Source: Thermoplasmatota archaeon (lineage in GTDB: Archaea; Thermoplasmatota; Penumbrarchaeia; Penumbrarchaeales; Penumbrarchaeaceae). From it: 19,535 nt of DNA. Where the stretch lies: contig JARVGK010000026.1 of NCBI GenBank assembly GCA_029762535.1, forward strand, positions 1-19,535, given 5' to 3'. The position numbers and the translations under genes were made by a program. Every line of letters starts with the position of its first letter. Within the stretch, counting starts at the first letter, position 1. Below the pieces are notes generated by a model. It ran no database searches and was not told the DNA's origin. It saw only the letters and a program-made list of their open reading frames with translations. This document shows, piece after piece, positions 9,121 to 19,535 of the stretch.

Positions 9121-9185
9121 GTTTCCAACGTATACGAATCCAATAAAAACAATAGTTGGAGTTTATGCCTATTCTATCGATAGAG
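9121..9185 (+). repeat. Degenerate direct repeat, copy 1 (flanks the AAA_14 ATPase gene)
   Basis: Perfect 17-bp core ATAGTTGGAGTTTATGC at 9152-9168, with partial identity to 10627-10692 on both sides. Confidence 0.75.
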
Positions 9186-9243
9186 TTTCTTCGCCTTCAG
9201 CATCGCAGGGTATTGTTGGAGAATGACTTCTTGAACTACCTCT

Positions 9244-10569
9244 TCAGGATCGCAGAATTCCTGCCTCCTCATGTTCGAGCAGGTATTTCCATAAAGGGAT
9301 GAAATGTAGCTGAGATCCTTTGATGACCTCAACCTTGTCCCGATCCCCGCCTATGATCAAGAGATCATCACAATCCAGTTCCTTCGAGGCCTTGATCAGG
9401 CTCCTGATCTCTCTGGAGACAGTATCAGGTCTATCGAGGTCAGAGCATACTTGGATCAATTGCGAGACCTTTCCATCCGATCTGATGACGAAATCCACCT
9501 CCCATCCACGATCGTCCCTCCAGTAGGATAACTTTTCACGAAGGCCTCTTCTTAATAGCTCGATGGCAACACAGTTCTCATACGACCTTCCGATATCCTT
9601 CCCAAAAGTGGTCGATAACGCTGTAAGGAATCCGTTATCGATGAAATATTGTTTCCGGGGGTATTGTAGTGGGTCCTTTACGTTGAATGAGAATATCTTC
9701 ACGTTATGCATGAAATAACTACTTTCAACATATTCCAAATAAGTGAATAGAGTGCTCTTGCCAACCGAGTGTCCTTGACTTTTCAATGTATTGTGCAATT
9801 TGCTCACGGAATATCTGGTCGAATTTAGCAGAAGAAGCAGCATCGCCTTCAAAGCAGCCTCATTTTGGACGTTGTAACGTTCAACGATATCACGGCCGAC
9901 CACTGTTCGAAAATATTCTTGAAGGATCTCCACTTTCATAGAGGAAGGAGAATCAACGACTTCGGGCATACCGCCATATTTCAGGTATTCGTCAAGATTC
10001 CTTCTCAAGGTGGCATATTCCATTTCACGGAATTCGATATGATCCAGGTTAAGAGATATCCCCTTGTAATTCAGGAATTCTTTGAAGGATAGTGGGAATA
10101 TTTCAACCTCCAAAGCCCTTCCTCTAAGCTCTGTGGGGATCTCTCTACTGGATACTTTCGAGCTGGAACCCGTTAGGAATAACCTCAGATCCTTTTGATC
10201 GTGGATCCTTCTTAACCATCTACTCCAATCGGTCATCTCCTGGAGCTCGTCCAGAAAGAGAAACTGGGTCTTTTTTTCGAAGGTAGACCTTATGACGGGG
10301 ATCAATTCCGTGAGGAATGTTGTATCAGGTGGAATTCTCTCATCATTGAAATCGATGTGAATGACCTCTTCCTTTGAAAGACCCTTGAGGAGGTCTTTTA
10401 TCAATCCATATAATAAGAAGGTCTTTCCAGTTCTTCTAAAACCCGTGACTACTATGATCTTCTTTGGGGTCATCTGAAGATATCTGGTGAGGTCGACGTC
10501 ACGTGTCTTGATCTGGGGGATCTCCTTTTCGATCCAGTAGTACAAAATTGTCCTTATTGTCCTATCCAT
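9244..10569 (-). CDS. AAA_14 family ATPase with C-terminal DUF4143 (nuclease-like) domain
   Basis: GFRRTGKT, LFLDELQE, TGSSS, GGMPEVV, KQYFIDNG, YENCVAIEL, YWRDDRGWEVDFVI...LIQVC. Confidence 0.92.
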   Translation of the reverse strand: MDRTIRTILYYWIEKEIPQIKTRDVDLTRYLQMTPKKIIVVTGFRRTGKTFLLYGLIKDLLKGLSKEEVIHIDFNDERIPPDTTFLTELIPVIRSTFEKKTQFLFLDELQEMTDWSRWLRRIHDQKDLRLFLTGSSSKVSSREIPTELRGRALEVEIFPLSFKEFLNYKGISLNLDHIEFREMEYATLRRNLDEYLKYGGMPEVVDSPSSMKVEILQEYFRTVVGRDIVERYNVQNEAALKAMLLLLLNSTRYSVSKLHNTLKSQGHSVGKSTLFTYLEYVESSYFMHNVKIFSFNVKDPLQYPRKQYFIDNGFLTALSTTFGKDIGRSYENCVAIELLRRGLREKLSYWRDDRGWEVDFVIRSDGKVSQLIQVCSDLDRPDTVSREIRSLIKASKELDCDDLLIIGGDRDKVEVIKGSQLHFIPLWKYLLEHEEAGILRS

Positions 10570-10626: not shown

Positions 10627-10692
10627 GTTCCTACGTATGGGATTTCCCTAAGGTCGATAGTTGGAGTTTATGCTTTTTCTATACGATAAGAG
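10627..10692 (+). repeat. Degenerate direct repeat, copy 2
   Basis: Core ATAGTTGGAGTTTATGC at 10657-10673. Confidence 0.75.
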
Positions 10693-11310: not shown

Positions 11311-11384
11311 GCCGATCCCCCTTAGATGAAGGGATCGCCGATATTCAATCTTTTTCCGGGGGGCCTATATCTGTGTGATCGAGA

Positions 11385-11735
11385 TCACTTCTTGAACTCT
11401 CTCTTCAGGATCGCCTCGACCTGGTCCTTGGTCTGGATGCTGGATGTTGCGGCCACGACCTTGCCCTTCTTGAAATAGACGGTGAATGGAAGCCCCATGA
11501 AGTCAGCGCACTCCGGCAGGGATCGGATGTAGTCGGCCTCAGGAATGTCGAAATCCATGTCGTAGAAGGTGACATTATCGTATCCCTTCCCTCTCTCCAA
11601 TTCCATCATCGCCTTATAGACCGGTATGCACATTGGGCCCATCCTCCCGGCGCAGATCATGACGTTCTCGTTTTGGTTCAATGCCTTCTTGATGTCGTCC
11701 TTGGTCTGTAGGTGCTTGAGTTTTGTCCGCAGCAT
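11385..11735 (-). CDS. Thioredoxin-fold protein with a non-CxxC active-site region
   Basis: Thioredoxin-like size and pattern (VTFYDMDFD, cis-Pro loop MGLPFTVYFKKGKVV); CAGRMGPMC where WCxxC is expected. Confidence 0.8.
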   Translation of the reverse strand: MLRTKLKHLQTKDDIKKALNQNENVMICAGRMGPMCIPVYKAMMELERGKGYDNVTFYDMDFDIPEADYIRSLPECADFMGLPFTVYFKKGKVVAATSSIQTKDQVEAILKREFKK

Positions 11736-11876: not shown

Positions 11877-11896
11877 GGTTCGAACCCTCTGGTGGC
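11877..11896 (+). repeat. Inverted copy of the tRNA-Thr 3' end
   Basis: GGTTCGAACCCTCTGGTGGC matches 20 of 21 nt of the tRNA 3' end GGTTCGAATCCCTCTGGTGGC, on the opposite strand. Confidence 0.8.
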
Positions 11897-12003
11897 GGCT
11901 ATAATCTAATTGTGTCGGGAAGCTCAATTGAATGCCGTAACATCAGGCTTCCCGGTCTTGGGAAAATCGAAATACGACATTGATACCATGTCGATTTTCC
12001 CGA

Positions 12004-12048
12004 CTTTTTCATCCCATATAGCTTGATGGATGCTAAGGGATGAAAAAG
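12004..12048. terminator. 12-bp perfect inverted repeat immediately 3' of tRNA-Thr (terminator-like hairpin with T-run)
   Basis: CTTTTTCATCCC (12004-12015) / GGGATGAAAAAG (12037-12048). Confidence 0.55.
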
Positions 12049-12122
12049 AGCCACCAGAGGGATTCGAACCCCCGACCTGCTGATTACAAGTCAGCCGCTC
12101 AACCGGGCTAAGCTATGGTGGC
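12049..12122 (-). tRNA. tRNA-Thr(UGU)
   Basis: Minus strand folds as a cloverleaf: GCCACCA acceptor, D arm, GCTGA-CT TGT AA-TCAGC anticodon arm, GGGGG-TTCGAAT-CCCTC T arm, TGGTGGC and U discriminator. No intron, no encoded CCA. Confidence 0.97.
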
Positions 12123-12152
12123 ATATGTTGGCGTTCCAACACTAATATCACC

Positions 12153-12170
12153 ATATTTATAAACAGTTCG
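12153..12170 (-). promoter_or_regulatory. TATA box of tRNA-Thr
   Basis: TTTATAAA at 12156-12163, about 35-40 nt upstream of the mature 5' end. Confidence 0.65.
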
Positions 12171-12196
12171 TTCACACTCATCGGAAGCAGGTCGGC

Positions 12197-12351
12197 CGCC
12201 GAAGGCGGTTATTATCCGTAATGGGGGGGTGGGGCCTTTACCCGAAAGAGTTCGAAGAACGAGAGAGGGGATCCACTGTTGGGTGTTTTTTTCAGGGAAA
12301 AAAACACGCTGATTACAAGTCAGCCGCTCAACCGGGCTAAGCTATGGTGGC
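12197..12351 (-). repeat. tRNA-Thr-linked repeat unit A (perfect copy of tRNA nt 1-44 at 12308-12351 plus ~110-bp conserved arm)
   Basis: Near-identical to 12398-12551; 12308-12351 is identical to 12079-12122. Confidence 0.95.
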
Positions 12352-12397
12352 GGATCGTTTAGGTCTGGGTGAAAAACCATTGTATAGATAAATGGTT

Positions 12398-12551
12398 CGC
12401 CTCAGGCGGTTAATATCCGTAATGGGGGGTGGGGCCTTTACCCGAGCGAGTTCGAAGAACGAGAGAGGGGATCCACTGTTGGGTGTTTTTTTCGGGGAAA
12501 AAAACACGCTGATCACAAGTCAGCCGCTCAACCGGGCTAAGCTATGGTGGC
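12398..12551 (-). repeat. tRNA-Thr-linked repeat unit B (tRNA nt 1-44 at 12508-12551 with one substitution 3' of the anticodon)
   Basis: Differs from unit A by a few substitutions and one G-run indel. Confidence 0.95.
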
Positions 12552-12586
12552 ATCTACCTATTGAGCATTGGTTACGGACCACGGGT

Positions 12587-15500
12587 TCAATCTGGGGTCA
12601 GGTACCCCCCGTCATCCACCCGGGCCATCGGAGGCGCTTCCTCCGCCTGCTCCTCTGCTTCTTCTACGGGTCCCTCAACGGATGGCCCGGCATCATCTTC
12701 CACTCCCTCTTCAGGGACCGATCCCTCCTCGGGGGCCTTCGACCCCTCGTCGAAGAGCTTGTCCACGTCGAAAACGTCATCCGGCTTCTCCTCGCCGGTG
12801 TAACCCTCCGGGGGCTCGGTACCGTAAAGCTCCCTGTATATCTCCTTCTGCTTCTCGTAGGGATCGTCCGTTCTCTTCTTCTGTGTCCTCTTCACGATCA
12901 TTATCCCGATGACGACCAGGATAATTATTATAAGCAGCGTCAGAAGCAAGAACAGGAACAGGACCAGGCCCTGGGAAAGTCCGGAAAGGAATGGGAAAAT
13001 ATCCGTGATCAGGTTGTATAGCCCCTCCCCCAGCGGGTTCCCCTTGGAATCATCCGGAGCGTCCCTGATCCGGACAGTGATGGCGTCGGAAACGATGACG
13101 GTCATATTGTCCTCGGACACCGCCCTTACGTAAAGGGTGTATTCCCCGGTATCGGCCGTTGCCGACGGGTAGATGACGATGAGCGATCTCCATAGGTCCG
13201 GGGATGTAAGACCCCTTGAGGACGATACCGGACCCCAACGAGTGTCGGTCCTCGTATCTGAGAAATATGCCCACCCTTCATCCGCTAGCTCACCCTCCAG
13301 GTAAAGAGTGACGTTGTCCGTGTAAGTTCCGAGATTTATAACGCCTATCTCCATCGGCTTTGACTTCAGGGAGCCTGATCCGCGGTATGTGAGATGTGTT
13401 TCGGGATATAGGAGATCGACCCTGTAATCGTTTATCTTTATCATACCCTCCGAGACCCTCGAAAAGTTCCCGTTGTTGTGGGCCATCACCTGGAACGAGT
13501 ACACCCCCATGCCAAGACCGAGTCCGTTCAGAGCGTACTCCGTGCTGGACCCGACGTCGGTCCAATCCAATATATCGTTCATAAAGCTCTCGGTTCCCAG
13601 CCGGATGTGATAGTTAACCTCCATGCGGTTATGGGAAGGGGACCTGCCCCATTCGATCGTGCGGTTGGTATCCGGCAGATAGAACGGTCCTACCGGAGGG
13701 GTCTCGGCAGGCGGAGGATCCCCGAAATCCACGACCCTGAAGGTGTGGGTGAGCACGTCCCATCCCCCTATCCTGTCGGTCACGTTTATCCTGAGCTTCC
13801 AGTATCCCGGGGTCAGCTTGTGTGTGTCAGGGATGTCGAAATATGTCCTTCTGCCAATTTGAACATCGTCGGAGAACTGATAGAGATCGACATGGTTCAT
13901 GAGCATGACCTTGTAATAGAGGCGATCCCCTTCCTCATCGTAGGCGTCATCCCACCAGATATGAGGTGTCTCCGAATTGATGATGCCAGGATATGCTCCG
14001 CCCATGAAGACGGGAGCGTAATTGTCGGGGATGTCAACGTTTATTCGCACCTCGGGGGTCTCCCTCAAGTTCCCAAGAAGATCGGACGCCATCCACTGTA
14101 TGTAGTTGTACACTCCTTTATCGCTGAACTTCAGATCGACATAGGCCAGGAATTGCATATCCTCGAGCGGTACTACCCTGTCCGGAACGGACCATTCACC
14201 GTAACCCTGGTTCGTCGTCCTGTACCTGTACATGATCGACGATGGATCGATGCCTATGCTCCTTGCGGACGTGCCTCCGAGTAGGTGGTCCAGCCATATG
14301 ATGCTGCAGTTGACGTCGGCGTAGATCTGAACGTCGGCCGTCGTCGGCCTCATCTGTATGAAATAAGGCACCTGCGAATCGATCCAAAGGGTGATGTATT
14401 CCGAGATGGTAGGTCCGTTACCGACCATGTCCCTGGCCTCGAACCTGACGTAGTTCTGTTTGCCCTGGGAAAGCTGTACGTTGGCGAAGGCGTTGTAGGT
14501 GTCGTTGTCTATCATCTCAGTGCTGCCTACGGGAATGCCCCTCTCGAAGTCATCAGGGGTATTGATTGACCTCTGATACTTGACCGAGGAGGGAGCCACG
14601 TGAGAACCTCCGGTATCGGTGACCCTGCCGCTGCATTGGACGCGGTCCTTGTCCATCCATTTGAACTCCTCGGGTCCAAGCATGACGACGCTTGGAGGGG
14701 TCGTATCTATCCTCGGTCCGGGGAATATGTTCGACCTTAAAAGCGTCGGGTCCCTCTCCTCCATGATCTCGACACCCCAGAAGTACTCGCCCTCGACCGG
14801 GATCACGGCCTGGGCGTGATATCCCACACCTTCGATGTAGTAAATGTCGGAATCGTTCTTCTTGGACATGGGAATATACTCCGAGAACGGGTCAAGCCCC
14901 TCCGCGTCGTTGTATATCCTCATCCTTGGATATCCGGTCCTGGGCATGTCGTTGTCGTAATCGGAATAGATGAACTCGAAATTGAAGACGCTGGATCCAT
15001 TGCCTATGGTCCTGTCGAATTCGAACGGCCCCATGAAATCGAAATCCCTCATACCAGGCAGATAGTTCGGCCCCGTGAGGGACTGTGAATGCCTTCCGAA
15101 GAAGAGGTCGCGGTAGACCTCCATGGGAAGGTAGTTCCTCTGATCGCTCCAGCACATGATGGCCCTGCCTTCCGGGGTATAGGTGATCCGGGGGAACTCC
15201 TGGTCGGTCCTATCATCCTTGAAGCGGTCCGTGTCATCCGCCCTCAGCATGTTTCCCCAGGTCCTGCCCCCATCCGATGAGTTGAGGTAGTATAGGGTCC
15301 TCTCTATCTTGTCACCCTGGAGGTTGAAGTTCTCCCTTTGGAACGACACCGATATGACCCCGTTGCTGGTCGCAGCTATGACCGGCCGATCATCGGTGGC
15401 CCTCTCCGGCACCCTGGTTATCCTGAAGTTCTTGATGAGGGTGGATCCCTTGTCCTCGCTTCGGGTCATCCATATCTCGGGGTATCCGCCCCTGGAGTCG

Positions 15501-16420
15501 CTCCAGACTATGTAGAGGTTCCCCGCGGCGTCCACCGCTGGCTCCGCATCGACGCGGACCCTATCCTCCTCCGTATCATCGGTAATGTTGATCTCGGGGT
15601 TGAAGGTCGCACCTCCGTCATTGGAGACCACCAATACCGGTTTGTAACCCAGGGTCAGGTTCCGATTATCGTGCCAGGTCACATACACATCATCGCCGTG
15701 CATGACTATCCTTGGTCGGAGATGGTTCCTGTAGTAGAGGCCGTCGGTGTTGAGGAGGACCGCAGTGGACCATGTATCCCCTCCATCGTTGGAATGAATT
15801 GAATAGATGTTGCGGTGGGAGCCGGAGTCCATCATGTCCTGCCATACGACCACGAGCCTTCCGTCCGCGTTGATGGCGATGTCAGGCTGAAAACCGTGCC
15901 ATATCTTCTCCGCTTTGACCGGGTCGATCTTGACGCTCGGGGTGAAGGATTCTCCCTTGTCGGAGGACTTGGAGAACCTGATCTCGACAGGCCTGGATAT
16001 CGGATCGTCCCCCACGAATTTCCTGTGGTCCTCCCATACCACGTATATCATACCATCGCTACCCACGGCCATTCGCGGGTGCTGCTTGGCGCTCCTGTTG
16101 TCGTTGCTGACGTTACCGTCCCTGAGTATGTCATCCACCCTTGTCGGGATCGACCATGTGGCTCCCTCGTCCTCCGATCTTGAAAGATACACCCCCCAAC
16201 GGAAGGTATGATCGCTCATGAAAAGGGCATATATCGTACCATCGGGCGCGGTCTCGAGGTCGCATGGCACCTGGGTGTTGAGGGCGTAGGCGCCCGTCGC
16301 TATCTGAACGCTGGCTGCGAATATCGGCCTGCCCCCAGTGGCCTCCATGGGCAGGAATTGCATGAGGCCGACAATGACGAGCATGGCCGCGAGGGCCGGG
16401 ACTGAGTAGCGTCTGTTCAT
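12587..16420 (-). CDS. Large membrane-anchored surface protein: BNR/Asp-box beta-propeller (sialidase-like fold), Ig-like stalk, C-terminal TM helix and acidic tail
   Basis: Signal peptide; six Asp-boxes (SEDEGATW, SSDKGESF, SNDGGDTW, SNDGGATF, SEDKGSTL, SSDGGRTW); IDTTPP-type Ig modules; TM LVLFLFLLLTLLIIIILVVIGIMIV followed by KRTQKKR. Confidence 0.85.
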   Translation of the reverse strand: MNRRYSVPALAAMLVIVGLMQFLPMEATGGRPIFAASVQIATGAYALNTQVPCDLETAPDGTIYALFMSDHTFRWGVYLSRSEDEGATWSIPTRVDDILRDGNVSNDNRSAKQHPRMAVGSDGMIYVVWEDHRKFVGDDPISRPVEIRFSKSSDKGESFTPSVKIDPVKAEKIWHGFQPDIAINADGRLVVVWQDMMDSGSHRNIYSIHSNDGGDTWSTAVLLNTDGLYYRNHLRPRIVMHGDDVYVTWHDNRNLTLGYKPVLVVSNDGGATFNPEINITDDTEEDRVRVDAEPAVDAAGNLYIVWSDSRGGYPEIWMTRSEDKGSTLIKNFRITRVPERATDDRPVIAATSNGVISVSFQRENFNLQGDKIERTLYYLNSSDGGRTWGNMLRADDTDRFKDDRTDQEFPRITYTPEGRAIMCWSDQRNYLPMEVYRDLFFGRHSQSLTGPNYLPGMRDFDFMGPFEFDRTIGNGSSVFNFEFIYSDYDNDMPRTGYPRMRIYNDAEGLDPFSEYIPMSKKNDSDIYYIEGVGYHAQAVIPVEGEYFWGVEIMEERDPTLLRSNIFPGPRIDTTPPSVVMLGPEEFKWMDKDRVQCSGRVTDTGGSHVAPSSVKYQRSINTPDDFERGIPVGSTEMIDNDTYNAFANVQLSQGKQNYVRFEARDMVGNGPTISEYITLWIDSQVPYFIQMRPTTADVQIYADVNCSIIWLDHLLGGTSARSIGIDPSSIMYRYRTTNQGYGEWSVPDRVVPLEDMQFLAYVDLKFSDKGVYNYIQWMASDLLGNLRETPEVRINVDIPDNYAPVFMGGAYPGIINSETPHIWWDDAYDEEGDRLYYKVMLMNHVDLYQFSDDVQIGRRTYFDIPDTHKLTPGYWKLRINVTDRIGGWDVLTHTFRVVDFGDPPPAETPPVGPFYLPDTNRTIEWGRSPSHNRMEVNYHIRLGTESFMNDILDWTDVGSSTEYALNGLGLGMGVYSFQVMAHNNGNFSRVSEGMIKINDYRVDLLYPETHLTYRGSGSLKSKPMEIGVINLGTYTDNVTLYLEGELADEGWAYFSDTRTDTRWGPVSSSRGLTSPDLWRSLIVIYPSATADTGEYTLYVRAVSEDNMTVIVSDAITVRIRDAPDDSKGNPLGEGLYNLITDIFPFLSGLSQGLVLFLFLLLTLLIIIILVVIGIMIVKRTQKKRTDDPYEKQKEIYRELYGTEPPEGYTGEEKPDDVFDVDKLFDEGSKAPEEGSVPEEGVEDDAGPSVEGPVEEAEEQAEEAPPMARVDDGGYLTPD

Positions 16421-16487
16421 CTGGACACCTCCGGTTGGGTCTTCCGGAAAAGGGGCTTAGTAGTATATTAACGGCACGGATTGGGAC

Positions 16488-17732
16488 CTATTGATCACCT
16501 GAAGAGAAATTGGCCTTGGACCTCTTGAGCGCCTCGAGGACGGGCATATCCTGGCCGCTGAGATATCCGATCAGGGCCCCCCCTCCGGTGGAAACGTGGC
16601 TGATCCCGCTTAGCTTCTCTGTCTTGACCACCATGTTGGTCTCGCCTCCGCCCATGACCGAGTATGCGCCGGACTCGCTTATGGCCCTGAACAGCTCCAC
16701 GGTGCCTTCCGAGAACTGCTTCATCTCGAAAACGCCTGCCGGCCCGTTCGCGATTATAGTCTTCGCATCTTTGATTATATTTGAGTATCGGACTATGGTA
16801 TCGAGCGATATGTCGAAGATCGGGCCATTAGCAGGAAGGTCTTCGATGGTGATCCGCACTCTCTCTCCATCGATGTTCAGGGCGATGTCCGAAGGGTAAA
16901 GCACCTTATCGGGATGGTCCTTTAGGACCTTCTTGCATCTCTTGAGAAGTTCATCAGCTCCCTTTATCTCCTGATTGATGAAATTGATGTTGGGGGCTCC
17001 GAGATCGTATCCGGCGGCCCAGGTGAACATCGACCCCACCACTCCGGTGGTCAGGATCTTGTCGGATATGCCGCCTTTGAGAAGGTTCTCGGCGACCGCT
17101 ATCGAGTCATCGACCTTCAAACCCCCCAAGATCGCGATGGATGGCCTCTGGGGGTCCACCGTTATCCTTTGAAGGGCCTTGAGCTCCTTCTCCATCAGAG
17201 GTCCGGCGGCGCTGGGGACGACCCCGCAGAAGCCGACGAGGGAGGGCTGCGAACGGTGGACCGCCGAGAACGCGTCGTTTATGAAATATTCAACAACGCT
17301 AGAGAGTCTTCTGACCAGGAATGTCGATTCCTGGACCTTCATGGGGGCATCGTCCAGGTCCACGTCCTCGGCGTAGAATCTAGTGTTCTCGAGAAGGAGG
17401 ATCTCCCCTACGTTCATGTCCCTTATGCGCTCGAGAACTGTTTCGGAGAACAGCTGGTCCATGTACTGGACCTCTCTGTCAAGGACCCTCGAAAGGGATC
17501 TGGCATGCTCCTTCAAAGGGGTGTAATCCTTCTTGCCCGGCCTGCTCTGATGGGCGAGAAGGACCAGTTTGCATGGGGGCAACAGCTTGATGGACCTGGC
17601 ATGCTCCTCTATCCTCTTCAGCGACAGGATCTCTCCGGTGTCCGGGTTGACCGGAGAATTGATATCGACCCTCATCAGAACGGTCTTGCCCTCCAGGGGC
17701 AGATCGGATATGGTCAAGAAAGGCAGGTCCAT
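16488..17732 (-). CDS. pgk: Phosphoglycerate kinase
   Basis: MRVDINSP, LAHQSRPG, LLENTRF, INDAFSAVHRSQPSLVGF, ILGGLKVDD, NGPAGVFE, HVSTGGGA. Confidence 0.98.
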   Translation of the reverse strand: MDLPFLTISDLPLEGKTVLMRVDINSPVNPDTGEILSLKRIEEHARSIKLLPPCKLVLLAHQSRPGKKDYTPLKEHARSLSRVLDREVQYMDQLFSETVLERIRDMNVGEILLLENTRFYAEDVDLDDAPMKVQESTFLVRRLSSVVEYFINDAFSAVHRSQPSLVGFCGVVPSAAGPLMEKELKALQRITVDPQRPSIAILGGLKVDDSIAVAENLLKGGISDKILTTGVVGSMFTWAAGYDLGAPNINFINQEIKGADELLKRCKKVLKDHPDKVLYPSDIALNIDGERVRITIEDLPANGPIFDISLDTIVRYSNIIKDAKTIIANGPAGVFEMKQFSEGTVELFRAISESGAYSVMGGGETNMVVKTEKLSGISHVSTGGGALIGYLSGQDMPVLEALKRSKANFSSGDQ

Positions 17733-17761
17733 GGACTATCCCCTGGCAGTAAAGGGGGAGA

Positions 17762-17826
17762 TGGATTAAAGGTTTTCTAGACCTGCGAATATCTGCCATT
17801 CGAAGGGCGAAAAAGGTTATTAGACC
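17762..17826. promoter_or_regulatory. Divergent BRE/TATA promoters for pgk (-) and the RDD gene (+)
   Basis: Minus-strand AGAAAACCTTTAATC (about 17765-17779) and plus-strand CGAAAAAGGTTATTAG (about 17808-17823). Confidence 0.55.
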
Positions 17827-17866
17827 GTAGTAGTTAGGGAAGGAGGCAGTCATCGGGGGTGAGATA

Positions 17867-19072
17867 ACGGACCAGGTATCGATCCGCAAGGAATACAGCT
17901 GGGAGCTGAAGGAGAATCTTGCCAGAAGGGCGATCGCCTCCGTCATCGACCACATCCTAATATCCCTCGCGACCATATTCATAGGAGGTTTCGCGATCGT
18001 GGGGATCCTCTCCGCGAACCCGATGGGCGCCATCGCGGGACTCCTTGGGGATGTCCTGATGCCTTTCGATAATGCGGGGCTCGGGTTCACCCCCCTCTAT
18101 CTGGCCATGATAGCCTTCTCCTGCGTCAATGCGGTATTCTCCACATTGTACTTCACGGTCCTGGAATCGGGCCCCCGGAGGACGCCGGGAAAGGCCCTCA
18201 TGCATCTGCAGGTCGTGGGGGTCCTCGATCCCGATCCCTCGATCGGAAATGCTTTCACCAGGAACATCGACAGGATACTCTTCGGAGCGTTGGGAGGCTA
18301 TCTTCTGGGGATCGTCGGCGCGAACCTGTTCCCCGCCCTGGTCATGTTGGTGGAATACTTTGGCTTCAGCGGGAGGAAGGCCGACCTGAGGCAGAAATAC
18401 CTCGACGTCGTGGCAATGACCATAGTCCTCTTCGAAGATGACGAGGTGGAGATCGGGGACATACACATCGACGGTGCCCCTACCGTCGAGGACCTGCTGA
18501 GGGCTAAGAAGGAGAAGAAATCGGCCGTCTCCAGGACACCGACATCACAAGGCATAGGGGGAAAGGGGTTCAAGCAGACGGCGCCCATGCTCGGGTCCTC
18601 GCCTCGTACCATATCCGTCGCCATCCCCAAAGAACCCGTGGAGAAGAGCGACTCCAGGGATAGGCCCGCCTTCGGAGGCTCTTTGACCCGAGGCGCACGG
18701 GAAAAGCCGCAGGAGGAGGCACCAGCATCCACAAAGGAGGGCCATGATAAGGAGAGGAAGGGCAAAGGACTGCTTTCCGGTCTCTTCGGCGGAAAGAGCG
18801 AAAGAGAGCCTGAGCCAGAGAAGGTTGCCGATATGACCTCGATGGAATTATCGGAGGGGATCGATCGGGGCGATGATGCGGACGGTGTGGTACTGGCCTT
18901 CATGATGGACTTCGACATAGACGAGGACCGGGCGAGGAAGCTGTACGATGCGGGGTATCGCCTGAGCAGCGAGTTCGCGGAGGCGATCCCTGAGGACCTC
19001 ATGATGATAGAGGGGATCAATCCCACGGTGGCAAGGAGGATCGTGGCCCAGGCCAACGGAGCAGCGACCTAG
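17867..19072 (+). CDS. RDD-family membrane protein fused through a low-complexity linker to a C-terminal helix-hairpin-helix domain
   Basis: In-frame sequence upstream of the track's start (17999) encodes RRAIASVIDHIL, the RDD N-terminal motif; also TPGKALMHLQVV, RNIDR, QKYLDVVAMTIV; C-terminal RARKLYDAGY...EDLMMIEGINPTVARRI. Start position is inferred (ACG at 17867). Confidence 0.8.
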   Translation, partial: TDQVSIRKEYSWELKENLARRAIASVIDHILISLATIFIGGFAIVGILSANPMGAIAGLLGDVLMPFDNAGLGFTPLYLAMIAFSCVNAVFSTLYFTVLESGPRRTPGKALMHLQVVGVLDPDPSIGNAFTRNIDRILFGALGGYLLGIVGANLFPALVMLVEYFGFSGRKADLRQKYLDVVAMTIVLFEDDEVEIGDIHIDGAPTVEDLLRAKKEKKSAVSRTPTSQGIGGKGFKQTAPMLGSSPRTISVAIPKEPVEKSDSRDRPAFGGSLTRGAREKPQEEAPASTKEGHDKERKGKGLLSGLFGGKSEREPEPEKVADMTSMELSEGIDRGDDADGVVLAFMMDFDIDEDRARKLYDAGYRLSSEFAEAIPEDLMMIEGINPTVARRIVAQANGAAT

Positions 19073-19136
19073 CCCAACGTTCAAATACGACCGCTTCATT
19101 TCGGAGCGATGCGATCCCCTGAAGGATCGAGAACGT

Positions 19137-19210
19137 GGGCTGGTAGATCAGCTCGGTAGATCGCCTGCTTCGCAAGCAGGAGGCCTCGGGTTCAAATCCC
19201 GACCAGTCCA
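19137..19210 (+). tRNA. tRNA-Ala(CGC)
   Basis: Cloverleaf: GGGCTGG/CCAGTCC acceptor with the G3:U70 alanine identity pair, CCTGC-TT CGC AA-GCAGG, TCGGG-TTCAAAT-CCCGA, A discriminator. No encoded CCA. Confidence 0.98.
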
Positions 19211-19232
19211 CTCTAATTTATCTATTATTCAC

Positions 19233-19253
19233 GGACTGGAGGGATTTGAACCC
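19233..19253 (-). repeat. Inverted degenerate copy of the tRNA-Ala 3' end
   Basis: GGACTGG-A-GGGATTTGAACCC versus the reverse complement of 19188-19209, GGACTGG-TC-GGGATTTGAACCC. Confidence 0.8.
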
Positions 19254-19325
19254 TTGGGTTCTTGGGAAGGTAGGCATCGGCCGAGTTCCCAAGATGTGGA
19301 AAATCCCAAAGGGATTTTTCATGCA

Positions 19326-19535
19326 TCAAATCCCGACCAGTCCACCATTCCCTTCTCATTGCTTAATCTTTTTTTCAGGGAATGATGAACTGGTCTCAGT
19401 CGTGAAACTGCGTTTCACTCCTCCCGACCAGTCCACCATTCCCTTCTCATTGCTTAATCTTTTTTTCAGGGAATGATGAACTGGTCTCAGTCGGGTGAGG
19501 CAAAGCCTCTCCCTCCTCCCGACCAGTCCACTATT
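19326..19535 (+). repeat. tRNA-Ala 3'-end repeat array: two identical 72-bp units (19331-19402, 19422-19493) and a third tRNA-end copy at 19517-19530; runs to the window edge
   Basis: TCCCGACCAGTCCA occurs at 19331, 19422 and 19517; the first copy extends to 19 bp of identity with the tRNA (19326-19344). Confidence 0.95.

Follow-up and report, generated by a model that had tools for sequence, protein, structure and literature searches.

Arrays of short gene-less units carrying tRNA fragments at tRNA genes of a Thermoplasmatota archaeon and its family

We analysed the first 19,535 bases of contig C21 (hereafter the window) in the genome assembly of a Thermoplasmatota archaeon (2.96 Mb, 93% complete). 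The window holds two intact tRNA genes, tRNA-Thr(TGT) (12048..12122, minus strand) and tRNA-Ala(CGC) (19137..19211, plus strand), both recognised by ARAGORN and Rfam, and beside each of them lie short tandem units in which hairpins are combined with copies of a part of that tRNA. These arrays are a real system that extends through the genome and the family. Units were found downstream of 22 of the 41 tRNA genes of this genome, upstream of 9 and on at least one side of 25, while only 23 of 2000 random positions (1.2%) passed the same test, and a covariance model of one group of units, class A, had matches in 24/24 genomes of the family.

Unit arrays at tRNA-Ala and tRNA-Thr

Three units follow tRNA-Ala(CGC) on the plus strand, each ending in a copy of the last 14-19 nt of this tRNA. 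The first is a class A unit of 134 bp (19211..19344) and consists of a linker, an antisense of tRNA nt 51-73 (19233-19253), a short direct copy of nt 51-56, two core hairpins (the second at 19298-19320) and a copy of nt 55-73 (19326-19344). It is followed by a short unit of 91 bp (19345..19435) with a linker hairpin, an interrupted antisense (19386-19402), a small hairpin and a copy of nt 60-73 (19422-19435). The third unit (95 bp, 19436..19530) belongs to the same family as the second, carries a different inner hairpin and has its 3'-end copy at 19517-19530; the two share 72 nt at 100% identity. The array runs on past an N gap (contig 19536-19634) into two further copies and a decayed unit.

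At tRNA-Thr(TGT) two units of a 5' type lie upstream of the gene on the minus strand. The proximal one (229 bp, 12123..12351) comprises a copy of tRNA nt 1-44 (12308-12351), a hairpin core, an antisense that spans the junction and a promoter-like stretch, and the distal one (200 bp, 12352..12551) carries the copy of nt 1-44 with one change (12508-12551). The units have 128 nt in common at 97% identity. A perfect 11-bp palindrome with a 3-nt loop (12283..12307, no strand assigned; second copy at 12483-12507) abuts the 5' copy, and the same palindromic hairpin follows about nt 19-21 of tRNA-Thr(TGT) at a relative's locus (L057). The junction-spanning antisense, found in the proximal unit only, measures 10 nt and is complementary to tRNA nt 42-51 across the 44/45 junction (12186..12195, plus strand). 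A TATA-like stretch (12154..12170, minus strand) stands 34-41 nt before the gene; it is alike in relatives G009 and G020 and different in G003 and G013, and was probably brought in by the proximal unit. Directly behind the gene lies a module of three hairpins without a full 3' copy (11916..12047, minus strand), which is present in two near-identical copies behind tRNA-Thr(CGT) and has a relative behind tRNA-Thr(GGT). The stump of a downstream unit follows (11877..11915, minus strand), made of an AT-rich linker and an inverted copy of the tRNA 3' end (11877-11896). Upstream of tRNA-Thr(GGT) (L080, G000:C36) two hairpin cores interrupt a complete tRNA copy, one at about 28/29 and the other at about 58/59, and neither split is accompanied by a duplication.

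A preliminary description of this DNA had reported tandem direct copies of tRNA parts at both loci, separated by unique segments with hairpins. The copies are present at both, but they differ in kind, being of the 5' part (nt 1-44) upstream of tRNA-Thr with a spacing of 229/200 and of the 3' end downstream of tRNA-Ala with a spacing of 134/91/95. Hairpins were likewise recovered, with DNA fold z-scores of -6.6, -4.3, -4.4, -4.0 and -3.6 for the window units, all of which fold much better than shuffled sequences. The segments are not unique, given the stretches of 97% and 100% identity that they share, and members of the window unit families are found also at other tRNAs. The inverted copy of the tRNA 3' end stands at both loci as described. 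A 14-nt motif proposed as a common element does occur at 12286, 19369 and 19460, but it is not a feature of the family (it is in 3 of 205 units and at one further place in the genome), and because its orientation relative to the tRNA is opposite at the two loci and its structural roles differ we take it to be a chance match.

The region between the two tRNA genes is occupied by ordinary genes, encoding a large BNR-repeat protein, a phosphoglycerate kinase and an RDD protein. No recombinase gene was found in the window, in agreement with the earlier statement that no responsible enzyme is visible there. Elsewhere in the window a gene for an AAA_14/DUF4143 ATPase (9244-10569) is flanked by short repeats (9123-9253, 10628-10682 and 11384-11414; 55 nt at 76% and 31 nt at 90%), one of which copies the end of an open reading frame (ORF) at 11385-11735 and suggests a past insertion.

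Distribution, anatomy and strand polarity of the units

Across 198 tRNA loci of this genome and its relatives, 3' units were present at 109 and 5' units at 17, and their length was nearly always between 80 and 280 bp. Beyond the family, the class A model matched the one sister-family genome tested and two others among 121 genomes of the phylum. Almost all fetched class A matches lay directly behind a tRNA gene in the same orientation; those that did not were at contig ends or, at tRNA-Trp, on the far side of an island. The same tRNA type carries a unit in some relatives and none in others, and tRNA-Phe had units at 0 of 5 loci. Pattern scans gave no unit-like match in viral contigs, and in metagenomes returned only the antisense strands of ordinary tRNAs and an unrelated soil repeat. 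A tRNA-derived repeat with an antisense T-arm and no adjacent tRNA gene was seen in many GC-rich soil contigs (L229-L308). Phage records held no match to the units, a protein-based search among named genomes found no close relative, and no account of such archaeal elements was found in a literature search whose coverage excluded most subscription papers.

The arrays recur in dozens of independent assemblies with different sequences, which rules out the assembly artefact that the preliminary description had considered. Copy numbers at N gaps are uncertain; arrays often hold such gaps or contig ends. Several other features were noted in the same assemblies. Tandem arrays of GAAAAT-type hairpins, REP-like and often at contig ends, are located away from tRNA genes (L077, C61:1-420; L075, C31:5450-5900; ends of C4, C6 and C16). 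An element resembling an insertion sequence with a 301-aa ORF sits inside a unit of the tRNA-Ala(GGC) array (L072, G000:C58:93300-94300), and C23 and C9 end in pieces related to it. The tiny contigs C71, C82 and C100 of G000 carry extra tRNA-Ala and tRNA-Cys genes and are possibly contamination.

Read along one strand, each unit presents the same succession of parts: first the tRNA end and an AT-rich linker, then an antisense of the target, and last the hairpin core and the duplicated tRNA segment. The linker after the tRNA end is rich in T (mean 5 T in 10 nt), the complementarity between unit ends was near that of a shuffled control, so that no terminal inverted repeats were detected, and many arrays terminate in decayed stumps. 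The duplications begin at discrete positions, at 55/56 in 45 (class A) and at 59/60 in 119 of 178 cases. In the predicted fold of class A units the antisense extends across the insertion point and is paired both with the distal tRNA copy and with the short direct copy of the 5' T-stem, giving a four-way junction that closes exactly at the insertion point. Compensatory changes were counted in 11/32 and 12/18 of the predicted pairs. The variable base 57 of the host tRNA was matched by the antisense in 69 of 71 class A units (37 A, 34 G); by nearest-neighbour counts, with cores that are short and poorly alignable, base 57 differed between nearest cores in 26/71 and the tRNA end was common to them in only 19/71. 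The antisense also tracks T-stem bases that are not duplicated (A53 of Glu/Asp, and a Thr variant in L057). Several upstream units are mirror images of downstream ones, and at Leu and Ser their antisense extends past the duplicated part. A role of the antisense as primer-binding site for mature tRNA was rejected, as it pairs with genomic linker bases and not with the added CCA.

Of the hairpins, 69/132 and 30/49 had loops of 3 nt, with C-G as the usual closing pair and C-GAA-G or its complement as the commonest form; the UUCG and GNRA tetraloops were not among the common loops of the units. Loops of this size are characteristic of stable mini-hairpins in DNA and not in RNA. The tRNA strand gave the better fold in 47 of 52 class A units, and the opposite strand did so in 22 of 25 5' units (G-T pairs 71 vs 21). 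For both groups, the intact gene lies 5' of the unit when read along the folded strand. Loops and strand polarity together favour a single-stranded DNA form, and the folding of 5' units on the non-tRNA strand is beyond what a pre-tRNA transcript could explain.

Proposed mobility in trans and competing explanations

Some units appear to have passed between tRNA genes. One interior is 98% identical at tRNA-Val(GAC) and tRNA-Val(TAC), where the antisense is in both cases of the Val(TAC) type, and in a relative the interiors at Gly(CCC) and Gly(GCC) are 93% identical. Within the arrays of Ser(TGA) and Trp, Gly-like ends stand before Gly-type units, which suggests that a tRNA end moves together with the unit that follows it. 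Units have also been amplified locally, as shown by A-B-A-B alternation within arrays and by runs of identical units. At a tRNA(CAT) gene in three genomes (L071 = G000:C29, L171, L224) 0.9-2.5 kb of cargo lies between end copies; in this genome the cargo comprises a His-rich ORF and the gene for a P-type ATPase of the heavy-metal type, and a HicB-like gene comes shortly after it. An integrase gene lies behind tRNA-Trp, with a mini-array located at another contig end; the arrangement is the same in G020. Integrase islands at tRNA-Thr genes (L117, L118, L119, L127) looked ordinary, with GGTCC and not GGTTC as T-loop in three of the four.

The best fit to discrete insertion points, cores shared between tRNAs and a 98% identical unit at two tRNAs with different ends is one of the suggestions already made in the preliminary description, namely tiny non-autonomous elements that target tRNA genes and are mobilised in trans. 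We consider it an even bet that the units are gene-less mobile elements, reduced to an attachment (att) site, that were inserted in trans and then amplified locally. In such a process single-stranded unit DNA would fold, and through its antisense the tRNA end would be re-formed as a double strand, in the manner of the attP hairpin of CTX phage or of an attC site. A recombinase whose gene lies elsewhere, most likely one of tyrosine type from the host or from a virus or plasmid passing through, would carry out strand exchange at a defined position (55/56 or 58-60 for 3' types, positions in the D- or anticodon arm for 5' types). The tRNA gene would be restored and the displaced fragment would end up at the far side of the unit. 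With the unit providing a T-rich sequence behind the gene or a promoter in front of it, the host might lose little. Arrays could then also grow and shrink by recombination between direct repeats, and after a move to another tRNA the antisense would gradually be retuned.

The search for the enzyme covered several families. The recombinases of this genome are two of tyrosine type (one Xer/IntI-like, one beside tRNA-Trp), one serine recombinase beside tRNA-Cys and one IS110. The Xer/IntI-like protein (L001) scored below both curated cut-offs and occurs in 8/24 genomes, once directly beside a tRNA-Gly array (L126); branched attC-like repeats (G000:C25:85900-88200) are located about 13 kb from its gene. 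A further tyrosine recombinase of 200-245 aa with little beyond the catalytic domain, P0001, was found in relatives (L129:1288-2016, L122:1408-2127, L130, L131, L134), usually near contig ends. It adjoins arrays in two of them, and in two relatives a conserved non-coding stretch lies behind its gene. Among eight contexts of P0001 homologues only one held a tRNA (the G009 locus again), and the others looked viral; virus-like contigs were seen to carry homologues, in one case close to a gene for a His1-type capsid protein. The serine recombinase was rejected as mover, as tRNA-Cys has no array, and the only Cas1 was a Cas4-Cas1 fusion beside a CRISPR array. No recombinase was found between matching unit ends, and apart from assorted integrases no gene family recurred tellingly beside different tRNAs.

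A number of results weigh against mobile elements of this kind. No enzyme family tested matches the 24/24 distribution of the units among these incomplete genomes, and autonomous elements with these ends were not found. Tyrosine recombinases are encoded in 16/24 family genomes and in 8/8 of the most complete ones, but not as one orthologue; P0001 is absent from this assembly and present in 7/24 genomes only, and IS110 in 10/24. Y1/RAYT transposases were found in 0/24 genomes, GIY-YIG proteins only as UvrC-sized frames of about 600 aa, and reverse transcriptases not at all in this genome. At Val(GAC) both flanking copies are of host type and the antisense is of Val(TAC) type, and ectopic gene conversion could give the same result. 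Related units are not independent, and the counts given above overstate the number of events. Class B units had no strand bias in folding. Class A duplications, which omit T54, differ from the canonical T-loop overlap reportedly described by Williams in 2002. The helper enzyme may be transient, housekeeping or unrecognised.

The units could instead be domesticated tRNA-linked repeats that work as RNA: co-transcribed with the tRNA, with a closing helix that mimics the acceptor/T helix, cut out by tRNA-maturation enzymes and spread by local duplication and occasional gene conversion. We regard this as rather doubtful. It would accommodate the occurrence of units in every family genome without a matching enzyme, the best fold of class A on the transcribed strand and the tRNA-like end of the closing helix, and the layout is that of the E. 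coli RtT/TLR repeats, of which three in ribosomal RNA operons are transcribed and processed (PMC8144298). With this precedent the small RNAs envisaged in the preliminary description are possible for downstream units, but upstream units that fold on the non-tRNA strand are left unexplained. The loop spectrum also speaks against a function as RNA, highly expressed tRNAs are unevenly covered, with none of the tRNA-Phe loci occupied, and the T-rich linkers probably terminate transcription after the tRNA end.

That the units are deletion scars, i.e. the att ends of larger integrative elements that lost their genes, is improbable in our assessment. Large integrase islands do use the same tRNAs, as at tRNA-Trp here and in G020, and decayed stumps are frequent at array ends. 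Scars would hardly account for the narrow size range, conserved folds with compensatory changes and near-identical units at different tRNAs; moreover, no integrase remnants were found inside units, and the integrase islands that were found lack these ends.

Another possibility that had been offered is decoy att sites, which the host would maintain so that integrating viruses and plasmids are diverted or blocked. This would suit both the cargo between internal copies at tRNA(CAT) and the presence of units at over half of the tRNA genes. The idea found little support, as the large tRNA-Trp island adjoins the real gene and not a copy, and a decoy needs neither a junction-spanning antisense nor strand-biased folding; we judge it very improbable. 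Mobility at the RNA level, with the antisense as a splint for reverse splicing or ligation into the tRNA and subsequent reverse transcription, seems highly improbable. The antisense does bring the two sides of the junction into line as an internal guide would, and the copy upstream of tRNA-Thr(GGT) is cleanly split by two cores, but the genome lacks a detectable reverse transcriptase, 5' units fold on the wrong strand for it, and deletion between short direct repeats can explain the split copy. Mini-casposons or an assembly artefact can practically be set aside: tRNA-end duplications on a 15-nt scale recall the Aciduliprofundum boonei casposon (PMC5137440), and N gaps and contig ends are common, but terminal inverted repeats and a stand-alone Cas1 are missing, the casposon duplication overlaps its tRNA by 5 bp and one design with different sequences recurs across the assemblies.

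Comparison with known systems

Like the islands and proviruses of tyrosine integrases (review PMC8371274), the archaeal units restore their target, displace a fragment, use T-loop, 3'-end, anticodon-arm and D-arm positions and accrete in tandem. Unlike these islands, they contain no integrase or other gene, measure 80-280 bp, occupy many tRNAs per family, carry an antisense that tracks the host tRNA and begin their duplication inside the T-loop. The attP site of CTX phage (PMC6744903) and the attC sites of integrons rebuild a recombination site from a hairpin of one strand and share strand bias, array build-up and cargo cassettes with the units as modelled here. A one-strand folded site with strand bias is found in class A and 5' units, whereas class B is neutral. 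The units differ from CTX attP and attC in that the target is a tRNA gene, not dif or attI, and that a replication gene is lacking; a G/TT crossover as at the AAC...GTT ends of integrons was not seen, as distal unit junctions are without GTT. REP/REPIN-BIME repeats, which are moved in trans by RAYT, are also short, gene-less hairpin repeats in tandem clusters, but the units have long tRNA duplications and are almost wholly confined to tRNA genes, and Y1 is missing from the 24 genomes. The casposon of A. boonei, which resides in tandem at tRNA-Pro of another Thermoplasmatota host, makes a duplication of about 15 nt that overlaps the tRNA by only those 5 bp (PMC5137440); the duplication of the units lies within the tRNA, no casposase accompanies them, and the analogy drawn in the preliminary description is not borne out. 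Non-autonomous elements of IS110 (bridge RNA) have a short core and no long duplication, compared to 14-44 nt duplicated here. The units thus fall outside casposons, REP/RAYT, IS110 and canonical integrons.

The closest likeness is to the TLR/RtT repeats of E. coli (Rfam RF00391), known since 1978 and in 2021 still described as having no known function (PMC8144298). There, 1-5 tandem units behind a tRNA each end in a copy of its 3' end (18-19 bp, against 14-19 nt in the tRNA-Ala units). The tyrT analogy of the preliminary description goes further than it had stated. In the E. coli loci that we fetched, the tyrV RtT (3 x 178 bp) and the lysQ TLR have the layout of the archaeal units, namely linker, T-arm antisense, short direct T-stem copy, core of triloop hairpins and distal copy from about 58/59; this internal layout is an observation of the present analysis and not a published definition. 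There was no sequence or model similarity in either direction: the RF00391 model, which matched in E. coli as a control, had no match in the window or in 12 loci, where Rfam reported tRNAs only, and R1 had no match to RtT. The archaeal set further differs in covering most tRNA types, with several unrelated cores, mirror-image upstream units with 5' fragments and signs of transfer between tRNAs. By the layouts compared, the units are TLR-like in build and not in sequence.

It is a tentative and on balance unlikely extension that the archaeal units and E. coli TLR/RtT form one cross-domain class of gene-less single-stranded DNA elements, in which the antisense would act as a base-pairing guide that lets one enzyme insert them into any tRNA gene, retargetable and DNA-guided. 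Should the antisense indeed guide insertion, this would amount to a small programmable integration system. In addition, gene cargo lands in the arrays, and they cause short-read assemblies to break at tRNA genes. New in this work are the covariation count, the strand polarity, the direct comparison with E. coli and a census of candidate enzymes with negative outcome. The archaeal family, whose cores are many and unrelated and sit at most tRNA types, exposes the features that are conserved: a T-loop that is split, an antisense across the junction, triloops in the hairpins and a polarity of the strands. As E. coli has the same layout the question can be tested in a laboratory strain.

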